Shown: positions 2,402 to 47,626 of the stretch, piece by piece | Layout: each line of letters starts with the position of its first letter | Position numbering within the stretch: the first letter of the stretch is position 1 | NCBI GenBank assembly: GCA_965213685.1 | Contig: CBDBZY010000064.1 | Coordinates: 864,001-928,000 of the forward strand | Reading direction: 5' to 3' | From: a bacterium | GTDB taxonomy: Bacteria; UBA8248 | DNA: 64,000 bases | Notes under the pieces: model-generated | Seen by the model: only the letters and a program-made list of their open reading frames with translations | Database searches by the model: none | What the model was told of the DNA's origin: nothing | Translations under genes and position numbers: made by a program

Positions 2402-5400
2402 TTACAGAAAAGCGTAATAGATATCCACTGTTGAGCAGCAAAAGATGAGAAGAAAGAATTGGTGCATGCAAAGGGTTGATGAAGAAGTGGTACAGGTGCT
2501 GAGAGCTAGGTTTGACCTAAGTGGCGATATATCAACAGGAAAGTAAATTAATTTATGAACAATCTTATAAAGAGTACACAACTTAAAATACAGGCGACGG
2601 TTGCAGAGAGTAGGACACTTAGCAAGGTCAAGTAAATCCTGATAATCCAGATTATCCCATTGTTTAGAACATATTTTCAATGCAAGTTTCTGTGTATTTT
2701 CCAGTTTTTTTATGCTTCTGGCTGTACGAGGATCCCAAACTGGGGCTGCATATTCTAAATGTGGCCTGATTTGTGTGGTATACAATTCAAAGGGAGTGTC
2801 TGGTCCGGCACTACTGTAAAGTAGGCCCAAGAGTTTCCTTGCTTTGGTGCAAACAGATTCGATGTGTGGTGTCCAAGAGAGGTCTGACGATAGGATGACA
2901 CCAAGGTATTTGATGGTATCAACACATTCCAGTGGAATACCCTCTAGAAGTATGGCCGGGACATCAGTTGGTTTCCTCTTTCGAGACACTCTCATATATT
3001 TGCACTTAGATGGATTCATAGTCAGATGATGTGTGCGAACCCAAGTATTTAATAAGTCATTGTCTTGCTGAAGGTGTTGAGCGTCACCTGGAGAATTGAG
3101 ACCTCTGTACAACAACATGTCATCAGCAAATAAGTTAATGTAGGTACCAGAGGAGAAAGGCAAGCTGGCAGCATCATTGATGTAGGTAAGGAACAGCAAA
3201 GGTCCTAACACTGAGCCCTGTGGTACTCCAGACAGCACTGGTAAAGGAGCTGAAGATTCGCCACCAACAACCACTTTTTGACATCGCCGAGTAAGGTAAC
3301 TTCACACCCATTTCAGAATATGGGGATGAAGCCCAGTAGCTTCTAATTTCTGAAGTAGGGGTACATGAGGAACTGAGTCAAATGCTTTGCGAAGGTCATA
3401 GAAGATGGCGAGAATTTCCTTGCCAGTCTCCAATGCTTGAAGCCATGCATGGACCACAGTTAGGAGAGAAGCCACAGCTGACTTTCCATGTTGAACCCCC
3501 CACTGGTTAAGAGCAAGTTGGTAAGAGGTGTTGAAATGATCAGTAAGCAGCCAATGGAAGTGTCATTCAAGCAATTTGCTCATTATGGAGAGGAAGGAGA
3601 TTGGCCGGTAGTTGCCTTATCACCACCCTTGGGAATGGGAACGATGGATGATTCCTTCCAACATTGAGGACACTTGCCACTCCTGATTGAAATGTTAAAT
3701 AACTTTGTTAGTGATGGAACAATACTCTCAAGTGTGCCTTTTAACATCCTAGATGAAATTCCATCTGGTCCACTGGCTTTAGACACATCCAGAGAGCGAA
3801 TAAGGGCTGCTACCTCCTCTTCACAACAGAGGAAATCATCTGGACAGTGGTTAGATGGACATTCATTTAGGGACTCAAGTAATGGTGGAACAGCAGGATT
3901 GAAACAGCTGGAGAAGAAGTCATTCAGCATCTTAGCTTTGGCTGAGTTGGTAGATGCAGACATATCATTTAACATAAGAGTAGGAATGGTTGATTTTTGT
4001 TTGCTAAGACATTTGATTGCTTTCCAAAACTGTTTCTTGTTAGTTGAACTTAAGGTATTGAAGTAGGCTCTTCGAGATTTACGAATCATGGAAGTTACAG
4101 TATTACACAACATTTGGTACCTCTTAGCACTGTTGCAGTTGGGAGACTTCTTATGTTTTCGAAAAGCAATGTTACGTTTATGAATACACCGAACAATATT
4201 CTGGTTCAGCCAGGGCAGATTGTGCCTCCTTAGCAGTTGCCTTTGAGGAATACACTCCGACATTATCTCAAGAAATCGTTTTTGCCAGTTGCGGGTGGAA
4301 GTGTCAATGTCATTTTCATGTAGCAAGCTGTCCCAGTCAGTGATGCGAATCAGGTCACAAGCCTTGGTGAAATCCGCATGCTTGTAGTCCCAAATTAGGC
4401 ACTGGGATAGTTTGAACTGTCTGTGAGTGGGTTTCCATTTTAGTAGAAGGTGGAGGCCATTGTGGTCAGAATTTGCAAGAGGTGGGGTAGTACAGCACTG
4501 AATAAGTTGAGACATGTCTGATAACAGAGCCAGATCAATGATAGATGGCTCTCTATTTGGTTTAGTGTGAGTTGAAGAAGTGACTGCTTGTGAAAGTGAA
4601 AAGGTATATAAAACCCATGTAACTTTGGGGAGAGAGGATGGCTGGGATTGCAAAAATCCACATTGAAATCTCCTATAAGTACCAAAGTAGAAAAACTGGA
4701 AGGATTGATGTTGTGTACAATTGAAAGAAGAGAATCAAAAATATTTGCAGGAGACGATGGTGGCCTATAAAACAGTAAGATGCAATGCTTCAATTTGGGA
4801 GGTGGGGAAGAAATGGAAACAGAGAGAAACTCTAGATTGGGAGATCCCGTCATTGGTAATTCACTAGTGACACATGGCTTTACATAAATTATGACCCCAC
4901 CACCATGCCTGTTCTGGTCTAACCTATAAAGTGCATAGCCCACCAGTGAAATTTCAAAGTCAGATATTTCAGTGGAGAGCCAGGATTCCACTATGCAGAT
5001 TACAGTCGGTTCAAGATCTTCCACAGTAGCAGCCAGTTCATCAAACTTGGGAAGGAGACTTCTTGCATTGTAATACAAATTTGACAAAGGATTGGAGCTG
5101 GGAGTACCAGGTTGAAAGCTTGTGCCTTCCACGAAAGGAGTAAGTGCTTCTATAATTGTCTAAAAAAGGCAGTGTATTTACAGGAGGTAGGGAGTCAGAC
5201 AATAGGGAGCAATGGGTCACACCATCTGCACTGATGTCTTCACTGTGAGTAACAATGACTGTGTCTGTAGCAGTTGCAGATGAAGATGTAGAAGATTGTT
5301 GAGCATTGTCTGATTGCAGTGTAGGAGATGTTTGTGGTTGCTCTGGTTGCTGGCCAGGTAGGACATTGGCAGGAGAGCTGTCTTCATAGCAGTACATATT

Positions 5401-7115: not shown

Positions 7116-8310
7116 AAATCCATTGCCCTTTTACGAAATATGTACGGACTGTCACTGAGCAGCTATCACTGAGAAGACAGCGAGGTTATATCTGTCTTTC
7201 TGATACTGTTCTTCGGCAACAGGAGGACTGAAGAGGTACTGTTGTTACGTCTTTCCCGCGTGTCAGTGGCCGCATTCACACAGCAGCAAAAATGTGAGCC
7301 CACAAGTGTTGCTTTGTTACGAGACTACAAGCAATAAACATATATATAGCACAGCAAATTGTCGTAGTCAGAGAGGAAAGCGGCTCTCTTCGAGTCCTTG
7401 TTTCAGCTTCAGGTAATTCATACATTCAATGGAGCTCTGCTAACAGACCAACACACCTGACGTCACGTCCAAACCCACACGTGTCACACCTCCTTGGCCA
7501 TAATAATATTGTCAGCCATTTACGTCTCACGTGAGTGCCGTCCCGCGAGCCTTGCGCTTGGTACATGGTGGATCCAGAAGGCGTTAGTTGTAAGGTGAGC
7601 TGATGCGTCATTCGGTGCTGGTCTCGTAGCTCGACAGTGTTTGTACGTTTATACATAATAGGCAGTTTGTTGCGATGACTCGGAACGGCCCATATATGTC
7701 CGCTAAGTTAGTACGGCTGGAAGATTCAGCTTTGCAATCCAGCATGACTACAACTTTCCCTCTACAATGTGAAGTTTGTGTAGTGAAAAGTACAGTTATT
7801 ATTGTCATTTCAATGTCTGTACATGTCAGTGTTCAACACCAGCTTGGTACGTTCGTACTGTTGTCAGGAGGCCTACAACGATTTGTAGTCAATACCGTTT
7901 CTGGTCTACATATGCCTTTCAAGGAAGAGAGTGATATGTCGGCCTGCTGGTCTCCAAATGAACTTAGTTAATAGTCCATAGTGGGAAGGTTTTCCATCAG
8001 CCATACTAGCATCGCTCTTCAATTAGGTGAATAACAATTTTCATACACACCTTATGAGCTTCTAGGTACTCTCACAAACACATATACAGAGCACCTGACG
8101 ATGTCACTTTCAACTTCCTGACTGCTAAAGTCCCCCTGAAACCAAAACTTCCTTAAAGTGTTAGTAGTAGGAGTATGGAAAGAGGAAGGGTAAACATTTT
8201 AGTTGGTATACTAGTCACTGGGACATTTCAAGAATGGTGGTGTATATAAACAGTTTTGTTTTCTGTTGCCCAGGTTCTGTACCATTCACCTAGTAAGCCA
8301 ACTCTCTAAA

Positions 8311-11112
8311 ATGGAGGAAGGCAGTACGCATAGTGATGACAGTGATTATGAACCTGCACCAATTGCTTGCACAATGAACGACAGCAGCCAGCCTCCCCCT
8401 CTCCCTCCCCCTCGTTCATCATTCACTTTTCCTCATGGTTCATTCACTTTTCCTCGTCGTATACATTCCCACAGCTCAGCGGACCTCTATTCCTCAGTGA
8501 AATCTCAAAACCAACTGTTTCTCTGCCAGGCAATGAGGAAGTCAATCAGTGCTGATGTGAAGTTCCTGCTTCCTAAAGAGCCTGTGCAGTTGTCACAGTT
8601 CATCACGCGCTATTCTGCCCTGCTTCCCTGTCAAGTTCAGCTCCTCAGTGGATTCTGCTCCACTTCCATGGCCTCTGCTCCCTTACAGAGCGACATCCTC
8701 CAACTGCATTTCATCAAACACAGCAAGGTTGTAGTAATGAAGGAAAAGGAGAGTGGAGAAGAGTGCTCTGTCCCTCTCAACTCGGCAACAAAGTTTGGCC
8801 TTTTGTACAACCCTCATGCAGACCTGCTGGAGGCAATGGCTGGATTCGAGTTCGAAACTGTGGGGGATGTCATGGCCATGAAGCCTCTGCCTCTTGTTAT
8901 AAAAGCAACACAGTGCTACAAGGGGAGCTCGGCTGAATCATTAGTGGAAGAGGAAGAGATTTTTTGGGTGTTAGGAATCAGAAACTCCTTTCGTTCCAAA
9001 CATCTTCGAGTTCGTAGTCTACAGAAAGGAAACAAGCTCTTGCCTGAGAAGTGCTCAGGTGCCTTTACTACTCTACCAGATGACATCCAAGTCCCACTGG
9101 TGACACTTCTTGACCTCGGTCTTCATCTGCCACAAACTGCAGTTGCCTTTGGTAGTGATAGCACCATGCAGCAGCAATCGACGAAGTATCTCGTTATTTT
9201 GGAAAAGATGGCAGGCGAGACCTGCATCATTGCCTCCTACCCTAGTCCAGAGGAGAAGAAAGAACTCACTCACCTGGAAGTATCGTCTGACTTGGAAGTA
9301 GAAGTGGAGACAGTAGCAATGAATCTGTCGGCAAGGAAAGAGCTTGAGATCCAAACACAAGAACTATTTGTCAACTTCAATGAGTCCAAGTCATCTCTGA
9401 TAGTTCAGAAGAGCAGCAAGCAGGCTAATGAGCTGCAAGCACTCCTCCACAGCCAGCTTCTCCCTGGTAGAGAGCAGGAGGGTGTGCAGCTCGTTCACCC
9501 ACCAATGCTTGGCATTGACCAACAGCCCTGTGAAGATCCTCCGAGATCCGAGGCAAGTTCCTCTCAGCCCCCCACACCAGAGGTGAATATTTTAAGCCCA
9601 ACACCAAGTTCAGAATTTCCACCAAAGCTAGAGAACGACTACCAAGTGGTGCCTTCAGATGGAGGCACTGCAGATGAAGATTATGTATACATGGCTCGGT
9701 TAGGCAGCATTCCTGAATCTCTGAGTGAAGACGCTTTTAATTCACACTCTCGCAGCCCAAGTGCTGAGATTGAGTATCCCAAGCAGAAAACCCCTACAGT
9801 AGCAGATGTTGAATCACAGAGTCAGTTCGTACATACATCAAACAGCCTGCCTGAACTGTTCGCCAAACTTGACAACTTTTCTCAGCAAGTAGGCTCACTA
9901 TCAGCTTATATGAAACAACAAGACTGTATCCTGAAAGAAATGGAGAAACTACAGTCCACTATGCTCGCAGTACAGAAAGACGTAGAGCTTTTGAAAAGTC
10001 CTACAGAGGTAGGGAAGACATCCCCAGATCCGCAAGAAGAAGAGCACGAAAGAAACAGAAGATTCCTGGCTACTCTGGACACTCAACAGGTAAACTGATG
10101 TTTGTCCCTTATTGTGGTGAACTACTATGTAAGCTGTGCCTAGATCTTATCTCAAGCCCCCTTTCCCCTTTTCCCCCTTTCCTGTGAAGTAGATAACATT
10201 GATTGTGTGTATGCAAATAAGCATCAGAGCAAAGAGAATCTATTGCATGTCTGTTTGCTCATCCATTTGATATTCCTCATGGGTGACTGCTTATCACATT
10301 ACCCACTGTACGTAATTACCTCACCAATGGCAAGATATGTGTGGGAGGGAGGGTGGAAGCTGGTGTCTAAGCTTCTGGTAGGACATGATTTGCCCTATTC
10401 GAGCTTAGTATGGCATTGGGCCACCTTGCTTCAAGCATGTGGCATGGGAGGTCCCATACCCATACTCCTTGAAGACATAAGTGTACATGTATACTTTCCA
10501 GAGCCTGTTGCAAAGTAGTTGCTGTGTAGTTTTTTAAACCACTTGCCATTTGAAGAGTTTTTGCTACATGTACATGTATATCTACGTGTGTGTGTGTGTG
10601 TGTGTGTGGGGGGGGGGGGGGGGTACCTTTGTAGTGTTGGTATATCCTGGAAAGTCCTCTAAACCTGTGGCATCAGCCATACACGTTGCTAGGCAACATC
10701 ATAGTAATAGTACACTCTTCCCCTTTTGTGGCATTACACAGGAGTGGCATAATTGGTCAGGGTACTTGAATTTTGGCCTCTTGTGAATTCATAATTATGT
10801 ATTGGAAGACATTCCCTGCCCAATGCACAAAGTGTACTACAGCTGTCATGCCCATGGCATAGTATTGCAAATAAACCACATTAATCTTTGAATCCAATAT
10901 CTTGTGCATAACAGATTCTGAAGATACTGGATGCACTGGATCTCCCTGAGTACAAGGAGGCCTTTCAAAGACAGCACATTAATGGGCACGTGCTACTGCA
11001 GCTGAATCACCAGATACTGGAAGATGAGTTGGGAATTAAGTCTAAACTCCACCGCATTCGCCTCATGACATTAGTGTCAGGAAAGGTGTCGGGCAACACT
11101 CTTTTGCCATAG
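8311..11112 (+). CDS. CABIT-like + proline-rich + coiled-coil + SAM adaptor protein (GAREM/THEMIS-like)
   Basis: Exon 8311-10089 (donor gtaaac) splices in phase 0 to 10915-11112, which encodes a SAM domain (ILKILDALDLPEYKEAFQRQHINGHVLLQL...ELGIKSKLHRIRL). CABIT-like motifs: LSQFITRYSALLPCQV, CSVPLNSATKF, FETVGDV, LLPEKCSGAF. PPPLPPPR and Tyr motifs DYEP, DYQV and DYVY are also present. Confidence 0.72.
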
Positions 11113-17775: not shown

Positions 17776-25137
<7,362 letters not shown>

Positions 25138-31059: not shown

Positions 31060-31871
31060 GCGCTTGTGTCTTGATTTGCTTTGCTCACTGAGAGGAATGG
31101 CTCCCTGAGTGACCAAAACTGTAGCTTTAGATTTATGCAGCCAACTTCAGGCACAAAACATAATAAGACTTTCTGTTCATCATCTGACAGCATGTGTCGT
31201 TTGAAAACAAACAAGTTGATCCCATTATTTTGTGGTGTTTGAATAGAATGCTGGAGGTTAGAGCTTGCAGTTCAATAAATCAAACTTGCAGTTCACAAGA
31301 AGATGGTGAAATGAAGAGGCAAGAGAATGAGAGGACAAGATACACCCCATCCTGCAGTACAGTGACTTTCACAACTCTCTCCAACCCTGTAGCATGTCTG
31401 GGAATTACATTGCCCCTGAAAGAGTCACGTACAGTTTGCTCTACTCAGCCTGCCAACAACATTGCTTCTATACAGCTCTACAATACTCTGGACCAAATGG
31501 CTTCTTGCTGAACAGCTTTTTCATTGCTCCCGGCCTTACTATTGTACCCATACTAATATTTAACCATGCTCTCGCAGAAAGTGATACCTAGGGCATGATT
31601 TCCATGATTCAAGGAACACTCTAGACCTCACACAATGTTTTCCAGTGCTTACATATTCATGGTCAATCAGTTACTGCATACATGAATAATTCATTAGATT
31701 GGTGAGCTTTTGTTTTACCTGCATCCCAAGTTAGAGAGCAATGAAAGAGCCTGACACTTGGACAGGTAAGATTAATCTATAAATCAAATGGTTTTGGTCT
31801 TTATTATAACTGCATTAACATTATTCAAATTATAACTATTTTAGTCACTTCTACTATTGTTTGCTGAAATG

Positions 31872-33335
31872 TCACTGTGGACCTTTGTCCATATATTCTT
31901 GGAATTCCTTCATCACCATGGCTTCCATCTCATGAAAGGTGTAGTCACTGGTTGGAAGGAACTCATTAATCACCTGAGTGTTTGCCACGTAATCAAAGTA
32001 GGGCCAATGTGTGAAGTCATTAGTGCCATACTGGTAACACTGGACAGTGGCACAGTAGTCAGCAGTGCTGTTCCACAGCTGGTGGGTTTGGAACCAGTTT
32101 GGGGAGATCCACGTAACATCACCAGCCCAGACATCGAAAGTTTTCAACGACGGATAATCGGGCTTGTCTGCATGCTTGTTGAAAATCTTGAGAGTCAGGC
32201 CACCGTGTAGCACCTTAATCACTGCGTATGCATTGCCGTGGTTGTGGATGGGACTGCCGTGGTTAGTGGGCCATATCTCCAGGACATATGGTATGCCTGG
32301 TGAGCTCCCACGGTTGGTACCCAGTGTTACACGCAGGTAGGTTTGACTGAAATCTCCAAATTCATCTGTCTTGGACTTCAATTTCTGGTAGAGCTTTCCA
32401 CTGGGGCCTTTAAGGCTGTAGCGAATCGCGTCAGAAAGGCAGTATTTGGTGGGTGTAGGGGACCAGTCCAGGTCAACATTTGGAGCAGTGACATTTGAAT
32501 AGAGCTCCAAGCAGGCTGGAGGCAGGCTAGCCGAAAAGGTGAAGTTATTGTCATCCAACTCAAACAGATTAACTCTTGAGCTGTCTAGCACAAATGGAGA
32601 CCAGTTGCACACAAATGGATCCTTGCTAAAGCTAACCTGGTGCTCAATGTCGATGACGGATGTAGCCAGGGTCTCAGATTCTGTGTCCAATGCGTTGCCA
32701 GAACATGTAGGAAACATGGCACTCAGAGTGCACCCACGAAAGCCATCTTTGAGAAAGTGAGCTGCATACCGCTCGACCAACTCTTTCATCGGCTCAATAT
32801 CGTACTGCTCAATGAGTCGGCGTACGGTCGGGCTGAAAAGGTATTGAAGCTTCTCTCGTACTTTCTCGTCCTCCACTTCATTTCCGGTAAGAAATCGGTA
32901 CGTCATGAGCGTTGTCTCCTCCATGCAGTAACCTTTGCCGTACTTCAACGTCAGCAGATCACGATCGTAGCTGAACCAATACGAAATTTTTCGGTTTTGT
33001 TCGTAGCCGACATGCTCATTGTTAACGGTTCCTCGTACTTCCTTCAGTTGCTCTGCTTTCCCGTTAATGTGGATCTTAAAACTCGCTGAATGTTTACACA
33101 CTTCCAGCGCTATCCACTGGTCGGCTCCCGCTTGATGAGGTTTCAATTTCGGTCGGATGACGATGGAGAATGCAGTGCTGCGCTGGATGGAAAAGATGAG
33201 CGTGCCCTCTCCGATGACTGGGAAGTCTTTGGTCCAGTTTGGCTTCGTGCCATCCCGAATGAGACGCGCCGTATCAATACCCATCCCACCACAACCAGAG
33301 CTCTCCGATGGCACCTTTTCCGTCTCGGCTGACAT
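31872..33335 (-). CDS. Intronless 487-aa protein with a C-terminal cysteine-dioxygenase-like (thiol dioxygenase) cupin
   Basis: Uninterrupted ORF. YLRVTL...YVLEIWPTNHGSPIHNHGNAYAVIKVLHG...THQLWN...CATVQCY aligns by eye to CDO motifs (YTRN, W..GHGSSIHDH, HRVEN, SLHLY). AATAAA on the minus strand at 31800-31805. Confidence 0.8.
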   Translation of the reverse strand: MSAETEKVPSESSGCGGMGIDTARLIRDGTKPNWTKDFPVIGEGTLIFSIQRSTAFSIVIRPKLKPHQAGADQWIALEVCKHSASFKIHINGKAEQLKEVRGTVNNEHVGYEQNRKISYWFSYDRDLLTLKYGKGYCMEETTLMTYRFLTGNEVEDEKVREKLQYLFSPTVRRLIEQYDIEPMKELVERYAAHFLKDGFRGCTLSAMFPTCSGNALDTESETLATSVIDIEHQVSFSKDPFVCNWSPFVLDSSRVNLFELDDNNFTFSASLPPACLELYSNVTAPNVDLDWSPTPTKYCLSDAIRYSLKGPSGKLYQKLKSKTDEFGDFSQTYLRVTLGTNRGSSPGIPYVLEIWPTNHGSPIHNHGNAYAVIKVLHGGLTLKIFNKHADKPDYPSLKTFDVWAGDVTWISPNWFQTHQLWNSTADYCATVQCYQYGTNDFTHWPYFDYVANTQVINEFLPTSDYTFHEMEAMVMKEFQEYMDKGPQ

Positions 33336-33418: not shown

Positions 33419-36400
33419 CCCTTTATACCCGGAATAGCGCGCTTGCGCGAGTTCACGTGTAACGGAATTAATTGCGTATTTAACGCGGCACGTGTTCTAC
33501 TAATCTTTCGACTGCTCTGCCCGTCAATGGACAGGCCCAGACTGGATTAGAAGCTCCTAGAATGATATTCCAGAGGAAAAGCGCCGTTTTGATTGCTACT
33601 ACACGAAGCAGAGACGAGGATACGTGCCAAAGTAAGGTAAGTGAACGCAGCTGGCGTCTTGAATGAGAGAGAAGTGGAATAAACGAGGAAGTAAAGAGCA
33701 AATGGGTTGAAAGGAGGGAGGGAGAAAGAGATAGAGGAATGGAGGGAGGAGAGAGAGTAAGGGAGTGAGGGGGTAGAGTGGGAAGAGGGAGGCAGGTAGG
33801 CAGGGGAGGGAGTAGGTGAGCAAAACGGGGAAGGAAGTGGGAGGACAGGGGGAATGAGATTATAATGCCTAATTTTGTGTAAATGCAAGAGAAACCTGTA
33901 GTACCAAGTTGCATCCCTCCATCTATGGACTGTTCATGAAGAGTAAATGTAGATTACACACAGACAACAGTGGAGTGCTAAGGACATAGATACACAACAT
34001 GGGTGAATGGAGATGAGCACATTTACATATGACAAGTAGGGATGATGAACGAGCTTAGGTAGGGGATGGCACTCACGTACATGGCTTGGTATGCATGTAG
34101 TATCTGCATGAGTGACTCTGTACATGTATGGAGGGTAAGTGCAATGCTCATAGTAGAAGAGCATGTAAGTGAGTACACAAAAAGTGAGATGACAAACTAG
34201 ACGTTGTGTTCATCTCTGATGACATGGTGGAGGTGGTACTGCAAGAAGCAGTCATCGTCTTTGCCATTATGGCAGAGAAAGTGGTCACAATCTTTACAAT
34301 ACCATACTGTCTGGTGCCTCTGCTTTTTGTAATTGTAACAGTAGTAGCAGCGGCGACCTTTGTCTGCTCCTCGCATAGGAAAGTGTGCAGTACAAAACCG
34401 TTTGACTGGTTGAGAGACGGATGGACGGCCAGGACGCTTACGGCTGCAGTATTCTCCAATGAGCTCTCTTGCCAGGTCAGTACGAAAGGTAATCACACTT
34501 TTCATATTTGTGTTGATGTATTGCTTGTAAAGAATAAAACTATTGGTAACTGCTACATCAAATAGAAACCAAAAGATGTATTTGTAGTACTTTCTACACT
34601 TAAGTCTCACATGGTAGTATCCCCTTAGCTGGTCATTTCGATCAACGCCACCCATGTGTTGATTGTACAAGGCAATTGATTTGGGACATTTGACTTTGCT
34701 ACGTGTACCATCTTTATTCTTTCGTAACACATAACATGTACTGGTAGGGTCTGCATTAGTAGCTGCTGCACATACAGTCCTATTATCTTGCCATACTGTC
34801 ACTGTGAGATTTTTACGTTGGTATGTCTGGCTTTCTCCCCGCTCTTTGAACCCTTTCTTTGCCACAGATTTTAGCTTTTCTGGGAAACCTCTACGGTCAG
34901 CTCTCATTGTGCCGCATGCGTACAGGCCAGACTTCAAAAGGTCCAGAAGTAATCCTATACTAGTGAAATAATTATCAAAATATATGTGTCTGTATGTGTT
35001 TGTGTAAGCACGAGTTAGTGTTTTTACTACGGTTGCTCCCAAGTTTTTTTGAGTGGTGTTAGACTTTTTGCCAGTGTATACCTCAAAATCTGACAAATAG
35101 CCATTTAGGGAGTCAGATATTGCCCATACCTTTATTCCTCTCTTTATGGGCTTTTTAGGCATATACTGCTTTAGAGACGATCGACCTTTGAATCTAATCA
35201 TTGCTTCATCGACACTCATAGTCATGTGAGGGCAGTAAACCAATTGAAATGTCGTTAGCAACCTTGCAATTATTGGTCTTATTTTTCCCAACTTGTCATA
35301 CTCAGGGTTACCAGGAGGAGAAAGAGTGCTATTTTCCACAAAGTGTAAATAGCGGTGAAGCTCAAAGAATCTGTCTCGGGATATCCTTTTTGCAACAGGT
35401 GAGTAGTAGAAAAATTCGTCTGTTTTCCAGTAATGATATATTGATGGTAGATGACATATTCCCATCAATATCATGAATCCCATGTAGGCTTGAAGCTCTT
35501 CTATTGTTACCTTTTCCCATCTGTGAAACCTCTCTCCTCCCATACACTCTAAGGCATATTGGTTGGTCTGCAGCACAATGTACTGCAGTAGTGTTGATGT
35601 AAAAAATAGGCTGAAAATACCAAATGGGGAGGAAGGAAGTGGTGCTTTGGGTCCTGGCGTTTCAGTGAAGGGCTGTGTTGTCACAGCCTTTAGTGATGAT
35701 GACCACTTGATGCACTCAATACTGTATGAAAGAGGAGTGAATAAGGCATATACATGTTACACCCAAACCTTGGCGAGAATGTGCTTTACCTTTCCGTTTC
35801 CTCAGGATCACTATCAGAGAGGTTGTCAAGAAGGGTTTCACTGTCATCAAGGGGAATCTCACTGGGGGGAGGGTCTTCGAGAGGGATGTCACTACAGGGA
35901 GTACATGCGCATGTATTTGTTTTTCACTGTTCGTATGTTATCTTTGAAGGCATGTATAGGTACATGTATCCTTGTAGAAATGTAACACTTCAGTACCGTA
36001 TGTAAAAGGTGTGAAAAAGCATACACATGTTGCAGCTAACTTGCTGTCATAGGGTATATTATTTTACCTTTCCATGTCTTCAGGAGGAACATCACTGTCT
36101 GAAGTGTTGAGAGGGCTGTAAGGAGGATCATCAGGAGGAATGTCACTAGTGGGAGGATCTTCAAGGGGGATATCACTATGGGAAGTACATGTGCATGTAA
36201 TTGTTTACAACACTTTCATAATTATGCAACCTTTCAAAGGTAAATTTAGCAAAATGAGTACACTGTGTATGTACCTCACCTGTCATCTCTACTGCCATCA
36301 TCGTCAAAGCTGAAATGTGTAGAGGAGTAAGTATTCAACTATAGCACTGTGGCTGTAGTATTCTGACTTTTGCTTACCTGTTCATGCCAATCTCTTCCTC

Positions 36401-40674: not shown

Positions 40675-42476
40675 GGATCATGTGGAGAGAACGGACCCAG
40701 CGCGCTATCACTCCCGGAAGCCATACAAGTGCCCGCGCTGTCACGCCCGCGGTCACGCGCTATGCCACGCCCCCAAAATCCATACGCACCTGCATGAGGG
40801 GCTGTTAGATGTTGTAATCCGTATAGCTAGGCAATAAAGTTGGTGATCAAGTTGTTCTAGGTGCTTGCCCTAGCCCAAGCTTTCCCAAGGCCAGCCGCAA
40901 CAAGCTGAACAACCTTTGAGGTTACCCCAAGCCAACAATTGGGGCTCAGGTTGTTTCAAACGCCAAGAGCTCCAGAGTGGGACTCAGTGGAAGGCATTAT
41001 CTTTTGGATTAGTGGTAGCTTTGAAAAAAGCTGGTTTGTAAAGGAAGAAAAGGAAAGTAATAGAAAGGGAGCTTTGAAAAAAGCTGGTTTTAATGAAATC
41101 AAAAGTGGGCCCATTGCCCCGTAACCATCTACTGGGGGTACCACAAACTGATGTCCTGGAAGAGGCTGGTGAGAGCTGCAGATGCTGTCCGTCCATGTCT
41201 CTCCCTCCACATGAACTCGTCCAGATAGGACGACAGCATCTCCTCATGGACACCCTTCATCCGCTTGAATTTTCCCTTCACGCGGTTCCAATAGGACTCC
41301 ACATTCTGTGTGTGGACTCCTGTCACTGGGTCAACAAAGTGAAGGGAGTGGTTCACTGTGTTGTGTGTGGACACTGAAGGCAGCTGCTGCACCCTGCTGT
41401 AGGCAGCCCAGTGGTCACTGTGGACTATTGTTCCACTGCAGAGATGCCTCTGCATAACTGGCAACAGTGTTGTTGCTGTACGGTTGGGAATGATGCACAT
41501 AACACCAAGTCCTGGTGTCTGGCTTACATCGCACATCCCAAACACCCACACTTCATTTCTGGGGGCACGCCCACGATGGTACTGCAAAAGATTGGATTAA
41601 TAATTTTACTGTGGTTACAGATTTATGGACAACATACCTTGGGCTTGTGACAACAGAGACTCGTCAATTTGTACTGTCACACCTGGCCCTCCAAGCTGCA
41701 GTGGTGCATCTTGGTTCAAAAGCCTCCAGCTGCACACATCCCTGCAGTACTGGTAGGCCTGGATGGCCGTCTTCCTGTCCACTTCAGCCTCCTCAGCAGC
41801 ATCGGTTACAGGGTACTCCCTAGCCCACTAGTAAAATAAAACCAGCCACTGCTTCAGGGACAACCGAAACTTCTCAAAAAATGTCCCACTCCGGAGGCTG
41901 ACAGACTGTTTACAAGTGGAGACAGGACATCTCCACCTAAACGTAGATATTATGTATTAGTGTACGAATACCCGCATTTTGTATTGCGTGTATATGCAGT
42001 CTCACCTGTATTTTTCTGTGATGTCGCTCCTGGATTGGATCTCCATCGTGTGACTGCAGGCTGGGCAGACCTTCTGCTGAGCAATCAGGCCCCTGGTTTG
42101 GAACCAGTTGATAAGCTGGTCTGAGTCGCCTGCAAGAATACTGGCCAGTTCAATGATACTAGCAGCCATTCTGTTCAGTTGACTGTGACAAACTAGGAAT
42201 TCCCGCCGTTTCATTTTTGTATATAGCGCTTCGAGACTTTGACGTTTGCCGCTTTGTTTTCTATTGGACTGTCTTTTACCGCTAAACGATACCCCGCGAG
42301 ATTTTACCGCTATTGCTGTGTCAGATGCAGCATCTAACAGCCCCTCCTTTTCTTTATGCAGGTGCGTAAGGATTTTGGGGGCGTGGCATAGCGCGTGACC
42401 GCGGGCGTGACAGAGCGGGCACTTGTATGGCTTCCGGAAGTGATAGCGCGCTGGGTCCGTTCTCTCCACATGATCC
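40675..42476 (-). mobile_element. Merlin/IS1016 (ISXO2-like) DNA transposon with about 135-bp TIRs and an 8-bp TSD
   Basis: TIR ggatcatgtggagagaacggacccagcgcgctatcact... at 40675, inverted copy ending 42476. TSD ctgtcaac at 40667-40674 and 42477-42484. Confidence 0.92.
41129..42169 (-). pseudogene. Merlin transposase, 3 exons, inactivated
   Basis: Exons 42169-42006, 41936-41638 and 41581-41129. Zn ribbon CPAC...WRCP..C; catalytic motifs VQIDES, HSDHWAAY, VNHS..FVDP.TGVHTQNVESYW and YLDEFMWRER. In-frame TAG at 41828-41830 and a frameshift just after IDESL. Confidence 0.88.

Positions 42477-42902: not shown

Positions 42903-47626
<4,724 letters not shown>

Follow-up and report, generated by a model that had tools for sequence, protein, structure and literature searches.

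The locus studied here raises three linked questions: whether an open reading frame (ORF) resembling cysteine dioxygenase (CDO), on a contig filed under a bacterial genome, is a bacterial or an animal gene, what its product would do, and whether it was acquired by horizontal transfer. The ORF lies within a 64,000-nucleotide stretch (hereafter the window; positions 864,001 to 928,000 of contig CBDBZY010000064.1, assembly GCA_965213685.1), for which a preliminary description had been made from the sequence alone. The reading that we favour, with moderate confidence, is that of a native, intact, single-exon sponge gene on a mis-binned contig, the product of which would be a cytosolic two-domain Fe(II) thiol dioxygenase of the Arg type.

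The gene itself is intact. The ORF listing gives a minus-strand frame from ATG to stop that encodes 487 amino acids (aa) and measures 516 aa from stop to stop. In the protein search, a 485-aa homolog from Geodia barretti with 72% identity covered 99% of the sponge protein, so the coding part is one exon; this single-exon status applies to the coding sequence, and an intron may be present in the 5' untranslated region. The 487-aa single-exon frame of the preliminary description is thereby confirmed, and all motifs that it quoted (SYWFSYD...LKYGKG, GSSPGIPYVLEIWP, HNH, THQ, YLR and TVQCY) are present in the ORF. The polyadenylation signal that it mentioned was also found, as an AATAAA at 31805-31800 that is the sole copy within 370 nucleotides (nt) past the TGA stop. 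This DNA occurs as contigs in four sequencing runs, which belong to a single study, and no RNA run is listed as carrying it. At the level of the gene, the features are as follows.

31872..33335, minus strand: full coding sequence of 487 aa with TGA stop, in one exon (ORF call and Geodia coverage)
33422..33427, minus strand: candidate TATA box TATAAA, 87 nt upstream of the ATG (consensus match only)
31800..31805, minus strand: candidate poly(A) signal AATAAA, 66 nt downstream of the stop (consensus match only)

The fold of the product was examined with an AlphaFold2 model built from an 81-sequence alignment, which had a predicted local distance difference test score (pLDDT) of 93.3 and a predicted template-modelling score (pTM) of 0.90, with disorder limited to residues 1-16. 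Comparison of this model with known structures gave two domains, a CDO-type cupin and a galectin-type beta-sandwich.

32625..33245, minus strand: galectin-type beta-sandwich, residues 31-237, with helical insertions at about residues 153-228 (model and fold comparison)
32970..32978, minus strand: W120-F-S122 of the SYWFSYD strand, with W120 and S122 invariant in 81 full-length relatives (alignment)
31917..32585, minus strand: CDO-type cupin domain, residues 251-473 (Foldseek, VIA-align and profile against PDB CDO)

For the C-terminal domain, Foldseek returned rat and human CDO at E 1e-8, and VIA-align together with a search independent of Foldseek aligned 150-161 residues of CDO to residues 251-473 at Z 12.8-13.2 and a root-mean-square deviation (rmsd) of 3.1-4.0. 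All known types of thiol dioxygenase matched this domain in the fold searches, with Z scores of 12.3 for 3-mercaptopropionate dioxygenase (MDO), 12.1 for Bacillus subtilis CDO, 10.6-11.7 for ergothioneine dioxygenase (ETDO), 10.3 for ADO, 10.2 for mercaptosuccinate dioxygenase (MSDO) and 10.0 for PCO4, and in both searches other cupins scored below them, many unrelated ones at Z 8.5-9.7 in the search independent of Foldseek. In addition, family profiles matched rat and human CDO in the PDB at E 2e-7 and 2e-8. The N-terminal domain matched galectin domains at Z 10.3-12.5, aligning about 125-130 of 135 residues with an rmsd of about 2.5-3.0 Å and an identity of 3-13%; GRIFIN was the match at Z 12.5 (rmsd 2.5, 128 of 135 residues), galectins-7, -4, -8 and -9 followed at Z 11.6-12.2, and the galectin fold was recovered also without Foldseek. 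No Pfam family was found on this domain, and no galectin family was among the nine Pfam families matched by the 81 members at E <=0.05. By the fold comparison about 250 residues precede the cupin, and not the approximately 300 first proposed.

The two-domain build is a property of the whole family, as a hidden Markov model (HMM) of the N-terminal domain matched 78 of 79 viral and 75 of 79 bacterial homolog ORFs. At E <=0.05 the CDO profile of Pfam (CDO_I, PF05995) is touched by 64 of the 81 relatives, some fused or bacterial ones exceeding its cut-off with 24-37 bits, and the PCO_ADO profile is touched weakly by 34. Some relatives carry extra modules on this core, namely Jacalin, PAN, Laminin_G_3, Cu/Zn superoxide dismutase, WWE and Macro. 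Three members (P0220, P0255 and P0240) are fused to the ADP-ribose readers WWE and Macro, which hints at a tie of some members to ADP-ribosylation signalling. No signal-like N-terminus was seen on the sponge protein or on 18 of 20 printed bacterial ORFs, which points to a cytosolic location; the two signal-bearing exceptions (L095_3296 and L143_2957) belong to a neighbouring gene, 'B', and are not homologs.

The residues of the cupin domain carry most of the functional argument, and they are listed here with the alignments that place them.

32331..32339, minus strand: Y333-L-R335, equivalent to CDO Tyr58-x-Arg60, which binds the substrate carboxylate (hhalign; 144 of 144 rows)
32268..32303, minus strand: family signature SPGIPYVLEIWP, directly before the first cupin motif (alignment)
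32238..32246, minus strand: H364-N-H366, predicted metal ligands equivalent to CDO His86 and His88 (profile alignment; 144 of 144 rows)
32223..32225, minus strand: A371, at the CDO Cys93 position (profile alignment)
32082..32084, minus strand: H418, predicted third metal ligand equivalent to CDO His140 (profile alignment; 144 of 144 rows)
32034..32048, minus strand: T430-V-Q432-C433-Y434, equivalent to CDO Ser153-x-His155-x-Tyr157 (profile alignments)

Conservation was read from 144 rows, comprising 16 named animals, 41 rows without a taxon label, 37 viral, 47 prokaryote and three rotifer sequences. Profile alignments place H364, H366, A371 and H418 on His86, His88, Cys93 and His140 of CDO, and T430, Q432, C433 and Y434 on Ser153, His155, Leu156 and Tyr157. 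Using hhalign, the family Y333-L-R335 falls on the Y-A-R of canonical PF05995 proteins (a set of 12 from bacterial genomes) with a probability of 91.9% and an E-value of 7e-7, and we take the Y-x-R element to be Tyr58 and Arg60 in rat CDO numbering. The three histidines, Y333, R335, K322, E353, W355, S361 and D464 are invariant in all 144 rows, while Q432 is kept in 143, Y434 in 142, C428 in 141, T430 in 140 and C433 in 135, and the A371 position reads Ala in 133 and Gly in nine. With Ala at the Cys93 position there is no cysteine for a Cys-Tyr crosslink, and the top-scoring PDB sequence for the family profile is an engineered CDO variant, H155Q.

These residues can be set beside what two papers state about characterised enzymes. 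In CDO the Fe-bound cysteine is contacted by Arg60 and Tyr157; eukaryotic CDO has a Cys93-Tyr157 crosslink and bacterial CDOs an un-crosslinked Tyr; and the Arg60 position separates 'Arg-type' from Gln-type enzymes (PMC8050391). The Ser-His-Tyr motif, including His155, is described as shared by CDO and MDO (PMC10966181), and its network speeds the CDO reaction, with activity persisting without it (PMC8050391). Judged by its residues, the family thus comprises thiol-dioxygenase-like cupins of the Arg type that lack the crosslink and have a Thr-Gln-Tyr second sphere, a variant for which no description was found in the literature; nor was an open paper found that joins 'cysteine dioxygenase' with 'H155Q'. 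The preliminary description had anticipated most of this. Its retained His ligands (HNH...THQ), retained Arg (YLR), change of Cys93 to Ala and change of SLHLY to TVQCY with His to Gln all agree with the alignments, and its label of an atypical CDO-like enzyme fits a protein that keeps the fold, the 3-His site, the Arg and the Tyr, has lost Cys93 and has Gln for His155. No support was found for its idea of another crosslink involving Cys433, the neighbour of Tyr434, as the side chains of neighbours in a beta-strand would face opposite ways.

Because the bacterial gene neighbourhoods give no pathway clue, the best-supported mechanism rests on these conserved residues. In the proposed enzyme, the galectin-fold beta-sandwich would be packed against the CDO-type cupin, with Fe(II) held by His364, His366 and His418. 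The substrate would be a small thiol whose carboxylate lies close to the sulfur, either cysteine or a compound resembling it, and Arg335 and Tyr333 would hold that carboxylate. Tyr434 would stand beside the iron-bound substrate and O2, with Thr430 and Gln432 in place of the hydrogen-bonding Ser and His partners of this residue in known enzymes, and O2 would be added to the thiol sulfur to give a sulfinic acid, with no Cys-Tyr crosslink, as in bacterial CDOs. For the galectin-fold domain, a role in shaping or gating access of the substrate is more probable than one as a canonical beta-galactoside lectin. Gene integrity, host origin, fold, residue conservation and position in the trees are results of the analysis, and the metal, the chemistry, the class of substrate and the role of the N-terminal domain are inferences.

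Several observations weigh against this assignment. Identity to solved CDOs is 14-17%, and a direct PDB sequence search reached CDO weakly, at E 0.016. The Pfam CDO_I profile scores 17.3 bits (E 0.0035) on the sponge protein, below its gathering cut-off of 23 bits, and covers residues 352-386 only (35 residues); an NCBIfam scan of the sponge protein gave a chance-level match only, at E 0.043. The Ser153-His155-Tyr157 motif is not conserved, reading Thr430-Gln432-Tyr434, with Gln in 143 of 144 family rows, and with His155 replaced by Gln the chemistry could differ. The mapping onto Tyr58 and Arg60 depends on one profile-profile alignment (probability 92%) and on rat numbering that we presume to be correct. 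No paper was found in the literature on a protein joining a galectin fold to a thiol dioxygenase, on sponge members of the family or on an assay of any member. Finally, when the neighbours of all 79 prokaryote loci were clustered, no partner was shared beyond close relatives except two proteins, 'A' (6 of 79 loci) and 'B' (3 of 79).

Some of these points would also be expected if the protein were not a thiol dioxygenase at all, being instead a 3-His cupin with other chemistry or a non-catalytic protein that binds a metal or ligand. The score under the CDO_I cut-off, the change of His155 to Gln, the lack of an assay and the many unrelated cupins at Z 8.5-9.7 are consistent with this explanation, which we nevertheless consider rather improbable, since the CDO-specific substrate-binding residues (Tyr58, Arg60 and Tyr157) and the three histidines are near-invariant across the family and thiol dioxygenases outrank other cupins in both fold searches.

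A different concern is the size of the substrate. The obligatory galectin-fold domain and the accessory modules of relatives leave room for a substrate larger than free cysteine, and the protein could be a thiol dioxygenase for a macromolecule or larger metabolite (a peptide or protein Cys, ergothioneine or ovothiol), with the galectin-fold domain as its recognition module. The retention of the N-terminal domain in nearly all viral and bacterial homologs, the binding modules Jacalin, PAN, Laminin_G_3, WWE and Macro on relatives, the matches of 34 of 81 members to the PCO_ADO profile, and the presence of ADO, PCO4 and ergothioneine dioxygenase among the structural neighbours are in keeping with this possibility, as are the named animal holders, which are marine invertebrates and, we assume, rich in ovothiol. 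CDO and MDO are closer by both fold and profile, however, the invariant Tyr-x-Arg indicates a substrate whose thiol has a free carboxylate beside it, like free cysteine, and none of the 81 members matches a galectin sequence family, leaving a larger substrate unlikely. The assignment to an Arg-type thiol dioxygenase acting on a small thiol is accordingly kept as the reading of choice.

The origin of the gene depends in the first place on the origin of its contig. The assembly, catalogued as prokaryote with a completeness of 94% and a contamination of 3.7%, comprises 8.0 Mb in 71 contigs and is a mixture of contigs of about 65% guanine-plus-cytosine (GC) content that are nearly fully covered by long ORFs and ORF-sparse contigs of 44-53% GC. 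The window-bearing contig (C64) is of the second kind (1.64 Mb, 44% GC), and genomes related to the bacterium of the bin measure 2.9-4.6 Mb, compared with 8.0 Mb for the bin. Other sponge-like, ORF-sparse contigs in the bin are C18 (0.81 Mb), C41, C16, C51 and C7. The window itself holds the following features.

43163-46022, plus strand: tubulin gene in at least three exons, with pieces of the Tubulin GTPase domain and Tubulin_C
2405-5159, minus strand: reverse transcriptase and endonuclease ORFs of long interspersed nuclear element (LINE) type
8215-10095, plus strand: CABIT-domain gene, 627 aa, single ORF
17779-18960, minus strand: Sulfotransfer_2 gene, 394 aa, single ORF
34197-35543, minus strand: piggyBac-type transposase ORF, intact, 448 aa (DDE_Tnp_1_7, E 2e-83)
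41132-41596, minus strand: ORF with an ISXO2-like (IS1595-family) DDE transposase domain (E 5e-19), on animal DNA

From the 44% GC, the sparse ORFs, the split tubulin, the LINE, piggyBac and CABIT genes and the excess size of the bin, C64 is sponge host DNA mis-binned into a bacterial genome bin. That the 487-aa gene belongs to the bacterium of the bin, as the cataloguing of the assembly as prokaryote and its completeness and contamination figures would imply, can be given practically no credence, given a 1.64-Mb ORF-sparse contig at 44% GC and a window with an intron-bearing tubulin gene, LINE, piggyBac and CABIT genes; a bacterial origin was rejected on this composition and these animal-type genes. 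The setting 'among intron-rich genes' given in the preliminary description is accurate for the tubulin, with its exons, and overstated for the rest, as the sulfotransferase (394 aa) and CABIT (627 aa) genes are also long single ORFs; with 81 ATG-started ORFs of at least 300 aa on C64, single-exon genes are not rare here. The piggyBac ORF lies 860 bp upstream of the 487-aa gene on the same strand, with a CT-rich low-complexity stretch (about 33660-33850) between them.

The family to which the gene belongs is large. A word-indexed protein search gave 780 matches at E <=1e-3, and an exhaustive protein search at least 612 cluster representatives, of which 185 reached E <=1e-30. The pattern of the family signature peptide retrieved homologs on 149 viral-contig stretches, many from giant-virus bins, and in 79 prokaryote genome loci, among which are isolates of Hymenobacter, Vibrio, Zooshikella, Sphingomonas, Pseudoalteromonas, Runella, Tenacibaculum and Sorangium. 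The preliminary description had tentatively linked this signature to giant-virus and fungal proteins; the viral part is supported by the viral contigs, and no fungal name occurs among the named matches. Named animal holders are the sponges Geodia (72% identity) and Amphimedon (60% identity), the bivalves Mizuhopecten, Pecten, Argopecten, Ylistrum and Mytilus, the echinoderms Holothuria, Apostichopus, Acanthaster, Patiria and Asterias, and the nemertean Tubulanus, with two copies each in the named bivalves, Tubulanus and Holothuria. Bdelloid rotifers (Rotaria: P0235, P0261 and P0229) also carry copies, with extra Cu/Zn superoxide dismutase and Laminin_G_3 domains. Full-length paralogs occur in pairs on one contig in three cases (P0025 and P0029 on 3.0 Mb, P0085 and P0088 on 0.93 Mb, P0089 and P0095 on 3.8 Mb).

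In order to place the sponge gene within this family, a FastTree phylogeny was built from 144 C-terminal domains after removal of loci at least 75% identical to a kept locus (158 reduced to 84), an IQ-TREE phylogeny (LG+C20+F+G4) from 62 hand-picked rows, and an outgroup-rooted tree from 56 hand-picked rows; P0185 had no long domain match and was left out of the trees. FastTree separated, with 100% support, 44 animal-side rows (three sponge, eight mollusc, four echinoderm, one nemertean and 28 without a taxon label) from 100 others (47 prokaryote, 37 viral, 13 without a taxon label and three rotifer), and IQ-TREE repeated this split with an SH-aLRT of 100 and a branch length of 0.73. The 16 named sequences from sponges, bivalves, echinoderms and the nemertean all belong to a single clade (100% support) free of viral and prokaryote rows, and within it the window protein, Geodia and Amphimedon group at 97-99% support. 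The starfish copy groups with the mussels and the nemertean and not with the sea cucumbers, which points to an old paralogy in the animal clade. In all three trees the rotifer copies sit within bacterial rows, a position that suggests that bdelloid rotifers obtained theirs separately, from bacteria.

These trees speak directly to the horizontal acquisition in the sponge lineage that had been put forward for this gene. A recent transfer from a giant virus or bacterium would fit a gene without an intron, the piggyBac transposase ORF upstream of it, its relatives in viruses and bacteria, and a codon usage whose leave-one-out correlation, 0.29, is lowish (15th percentile of the 325 long ORFs on sponge-like contigs). 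Against it, the best matches are sponges at 60-74% identity, compared with 26-46% for viral and bacterial loci; a branch with 100% support and 0.5-0.8 changes per column parts the animals from all 37 viral and 47 prokaryote rows; Geodia and Amphimedon cluster with the window protein; and both codon usage and the GC content at third codon positions (GC3; 0.573, the 67th percentile of the same 325 ORFs) lie inside the 5-95% range of contig ORFs. With sponges as nearest relatives, a 100% animal clade and ordinary GC3 and codon usage, a recent transfer into the sponge or its near ancestors is not supported, and we regard it as very improbable. This candidate was set aside on tree position, identity gap and composition, and the distribution among animals, a single clade with 100% support, is largely the vertical one that the preliminary description had named as refuting it.

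An older event is another matter. The whole animal clade may well descend from one gene that an early animal, or a eukaryote before it, received from a bacterium or a giant virus and that was then inherited vertically, with duplication and many losses, although we stop short of calling this probable. Bacteria (79 loci, isolates among them) and giant-virus contigs (149 loci) carry many members of the family, its coding sequence here lacks introns, and it is patchy among animals, the named holders beyond rotifers being sponges, bivalves, echinoderms and a nemertean only. Rooting on canonical CDO puts the base of the tree among Bacteroidota and the animal clade inside a grade of prokaryote and unlabelled rows. 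The outgroup branch, however, is very long, at about 10 changes per column, and support for the enclosing nodes is 83-86%, so that the rooting is weak and may be a long-branch artefact; without the outgroup, the clean split of animals from the rest equally fits an ancestral eukaryotic gene, and 28 of the 44 animal-side rows carry no taxon label. An ancient transfer concerns the origin of the gene only and is compatible with its reading as a thiol dioxygenase.

The neighbours of the bacterial homologs were also scanned with Pfam, using 95 proteins from 19 loci (the five of L118 were left out because of broken ORF calls). Protein 'A' is about 450-500 aa long, with an invariant CxxCH and a hydrophobic N-terminus; it adjoins the homolog in loci from Vibrio, Ferrimonas, Runella and Sphingomonas and is the only neighbour shared across phyla. 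Apart from one weak Cytochrome_P460 hit, comparisons with Pfam, NCBIfam and PDB sequences gave no match for it, and it is probably a secreted haem protein, without an obvious link to a cytosolic enzyme. Protein 'B' is about 480 aa long, bears a signal peptide and is found immediately upstream of the homolog in three loci, two from Vibrio and one from Ferrimonas; it had no Pfam, NCBIfam or PDB sequence match, and in L085 it shares one open frame with the homolog.

Protein 'A': L085:1961-3007, L095:1943-3292, L143:1577-2956, L116:6137-7609, L118:6110-7609 and L131:916-2442
Protein 'B': L095:3296-4747, L143:2957-4369 and L085:3312-6002

Taken together with the phylogeny, the domain architecture allows a further possibility, which we raise as speculation. 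The family might form a separate class of thiol dioxygenase, defined by the obligatory galectin-fold domain and Thr-Gln-Tyr, acting on a larger marine thiol (a thiol-histidine, a peptide of the gamma-glutamyl-cysteine type or a protein cysteine) and not on free cysteine. On this view the gene would have passed among bacteria, giant viruses and early animals, and bdelloid rotifers would have gained it from bacteria in a second, independent event. Thiol dioxygenases form a small group (CDO, MDO, ADO/PCO, and the mercaptosuccinate and ergothioneine dioxygenases) that matters for sulfur metabolism and oxygen sensing. Here, a widespread family labelled 'cysteine dioxygenase' in databases from sequence, yet uncharacterised, appears as a variant of this group, and the identity of its substrate would add a branch to thiol-dioxygenase chemistry and explain the frequent carriage of the gene by giant viruses. 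A sponge contig of 1.6 Mb inside a 'bacterial' bin also calls for caution when gene transfer is inferred from such bins.

Compared with known systems, the viral members may have counterparts in genes annotated 'cysteine dioxygenase' in Mimiviridae, including moumouvirus and CroV, which the papers describing them treat as ordinary CDO, with no assay reported (PMC3542560, PMC10598087). Galectins (GRIFIN, 5nle; galectin-7, -4, -8 and -9; the sponge galectin 4agg) share the beta-sandwich of residues 31-237, whereas the sponge domain carries about 80 residues of helical insertions and lacks both appreciable identity (3-13%) and a galectin sequence-family match. ADO and PCO (PF07847; PDB 7lvz, 6s0p and 7chj) are 3-His cupins of 240-270 aa with the N-terminal Cys of proteins as substrate; with weak profile matches in 34 of 81 members and Z 10.0-10.3, they are more distant from the sponge protein than CDO by fold and profile, and we presume that they lack the Tyr-x-Arg carboxylate clamp. 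MDO, the Gln-type enzyme (PDB 4tlf and 6xb9), has the common fold (Z 12.3), the 3-His site and no crosslink, and differs in retaining Ser-His-Tyr and in having, according to PMC8050391, Gln at the Arg60 position, where the sponge family has an invariant Arg. YubC of B. subtilis (PDB 3eqe and 4qm8), a bacterial Arg-type CDO, has an un-crosslinked Tyr as here (Z 12.1); it differs in being a single domain of about 160-170 aa and in retaining the His of Ser-His-Tyr, and its profile E-values reach 0.001-0.1 only. Mammalian CDO1 (PF05995; PDB 2b5h, 6u4s and 2ic1) has the same cupin fold (Z 13.2, rmsd 3.1, 151 residues aligned), and the equivalents of its 3-His site, Tyr58-x-Arg60 and Tyr157 are present in the sponge protein. 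Between the Arg and the first cupin motif, the sponge loop is presumably three residues longer than that of rat CDO. Relative to CDO1, then, the sponge protein, at 14-17% identity and below the Pfam cut-off, has Ala for Cys93 and with it no Cys-Tyr crosslink, reads Thr-Gln-Tyr for Ser-His-Tyr, and adds some 250 N-terminal residues as a galectin-fold domain.

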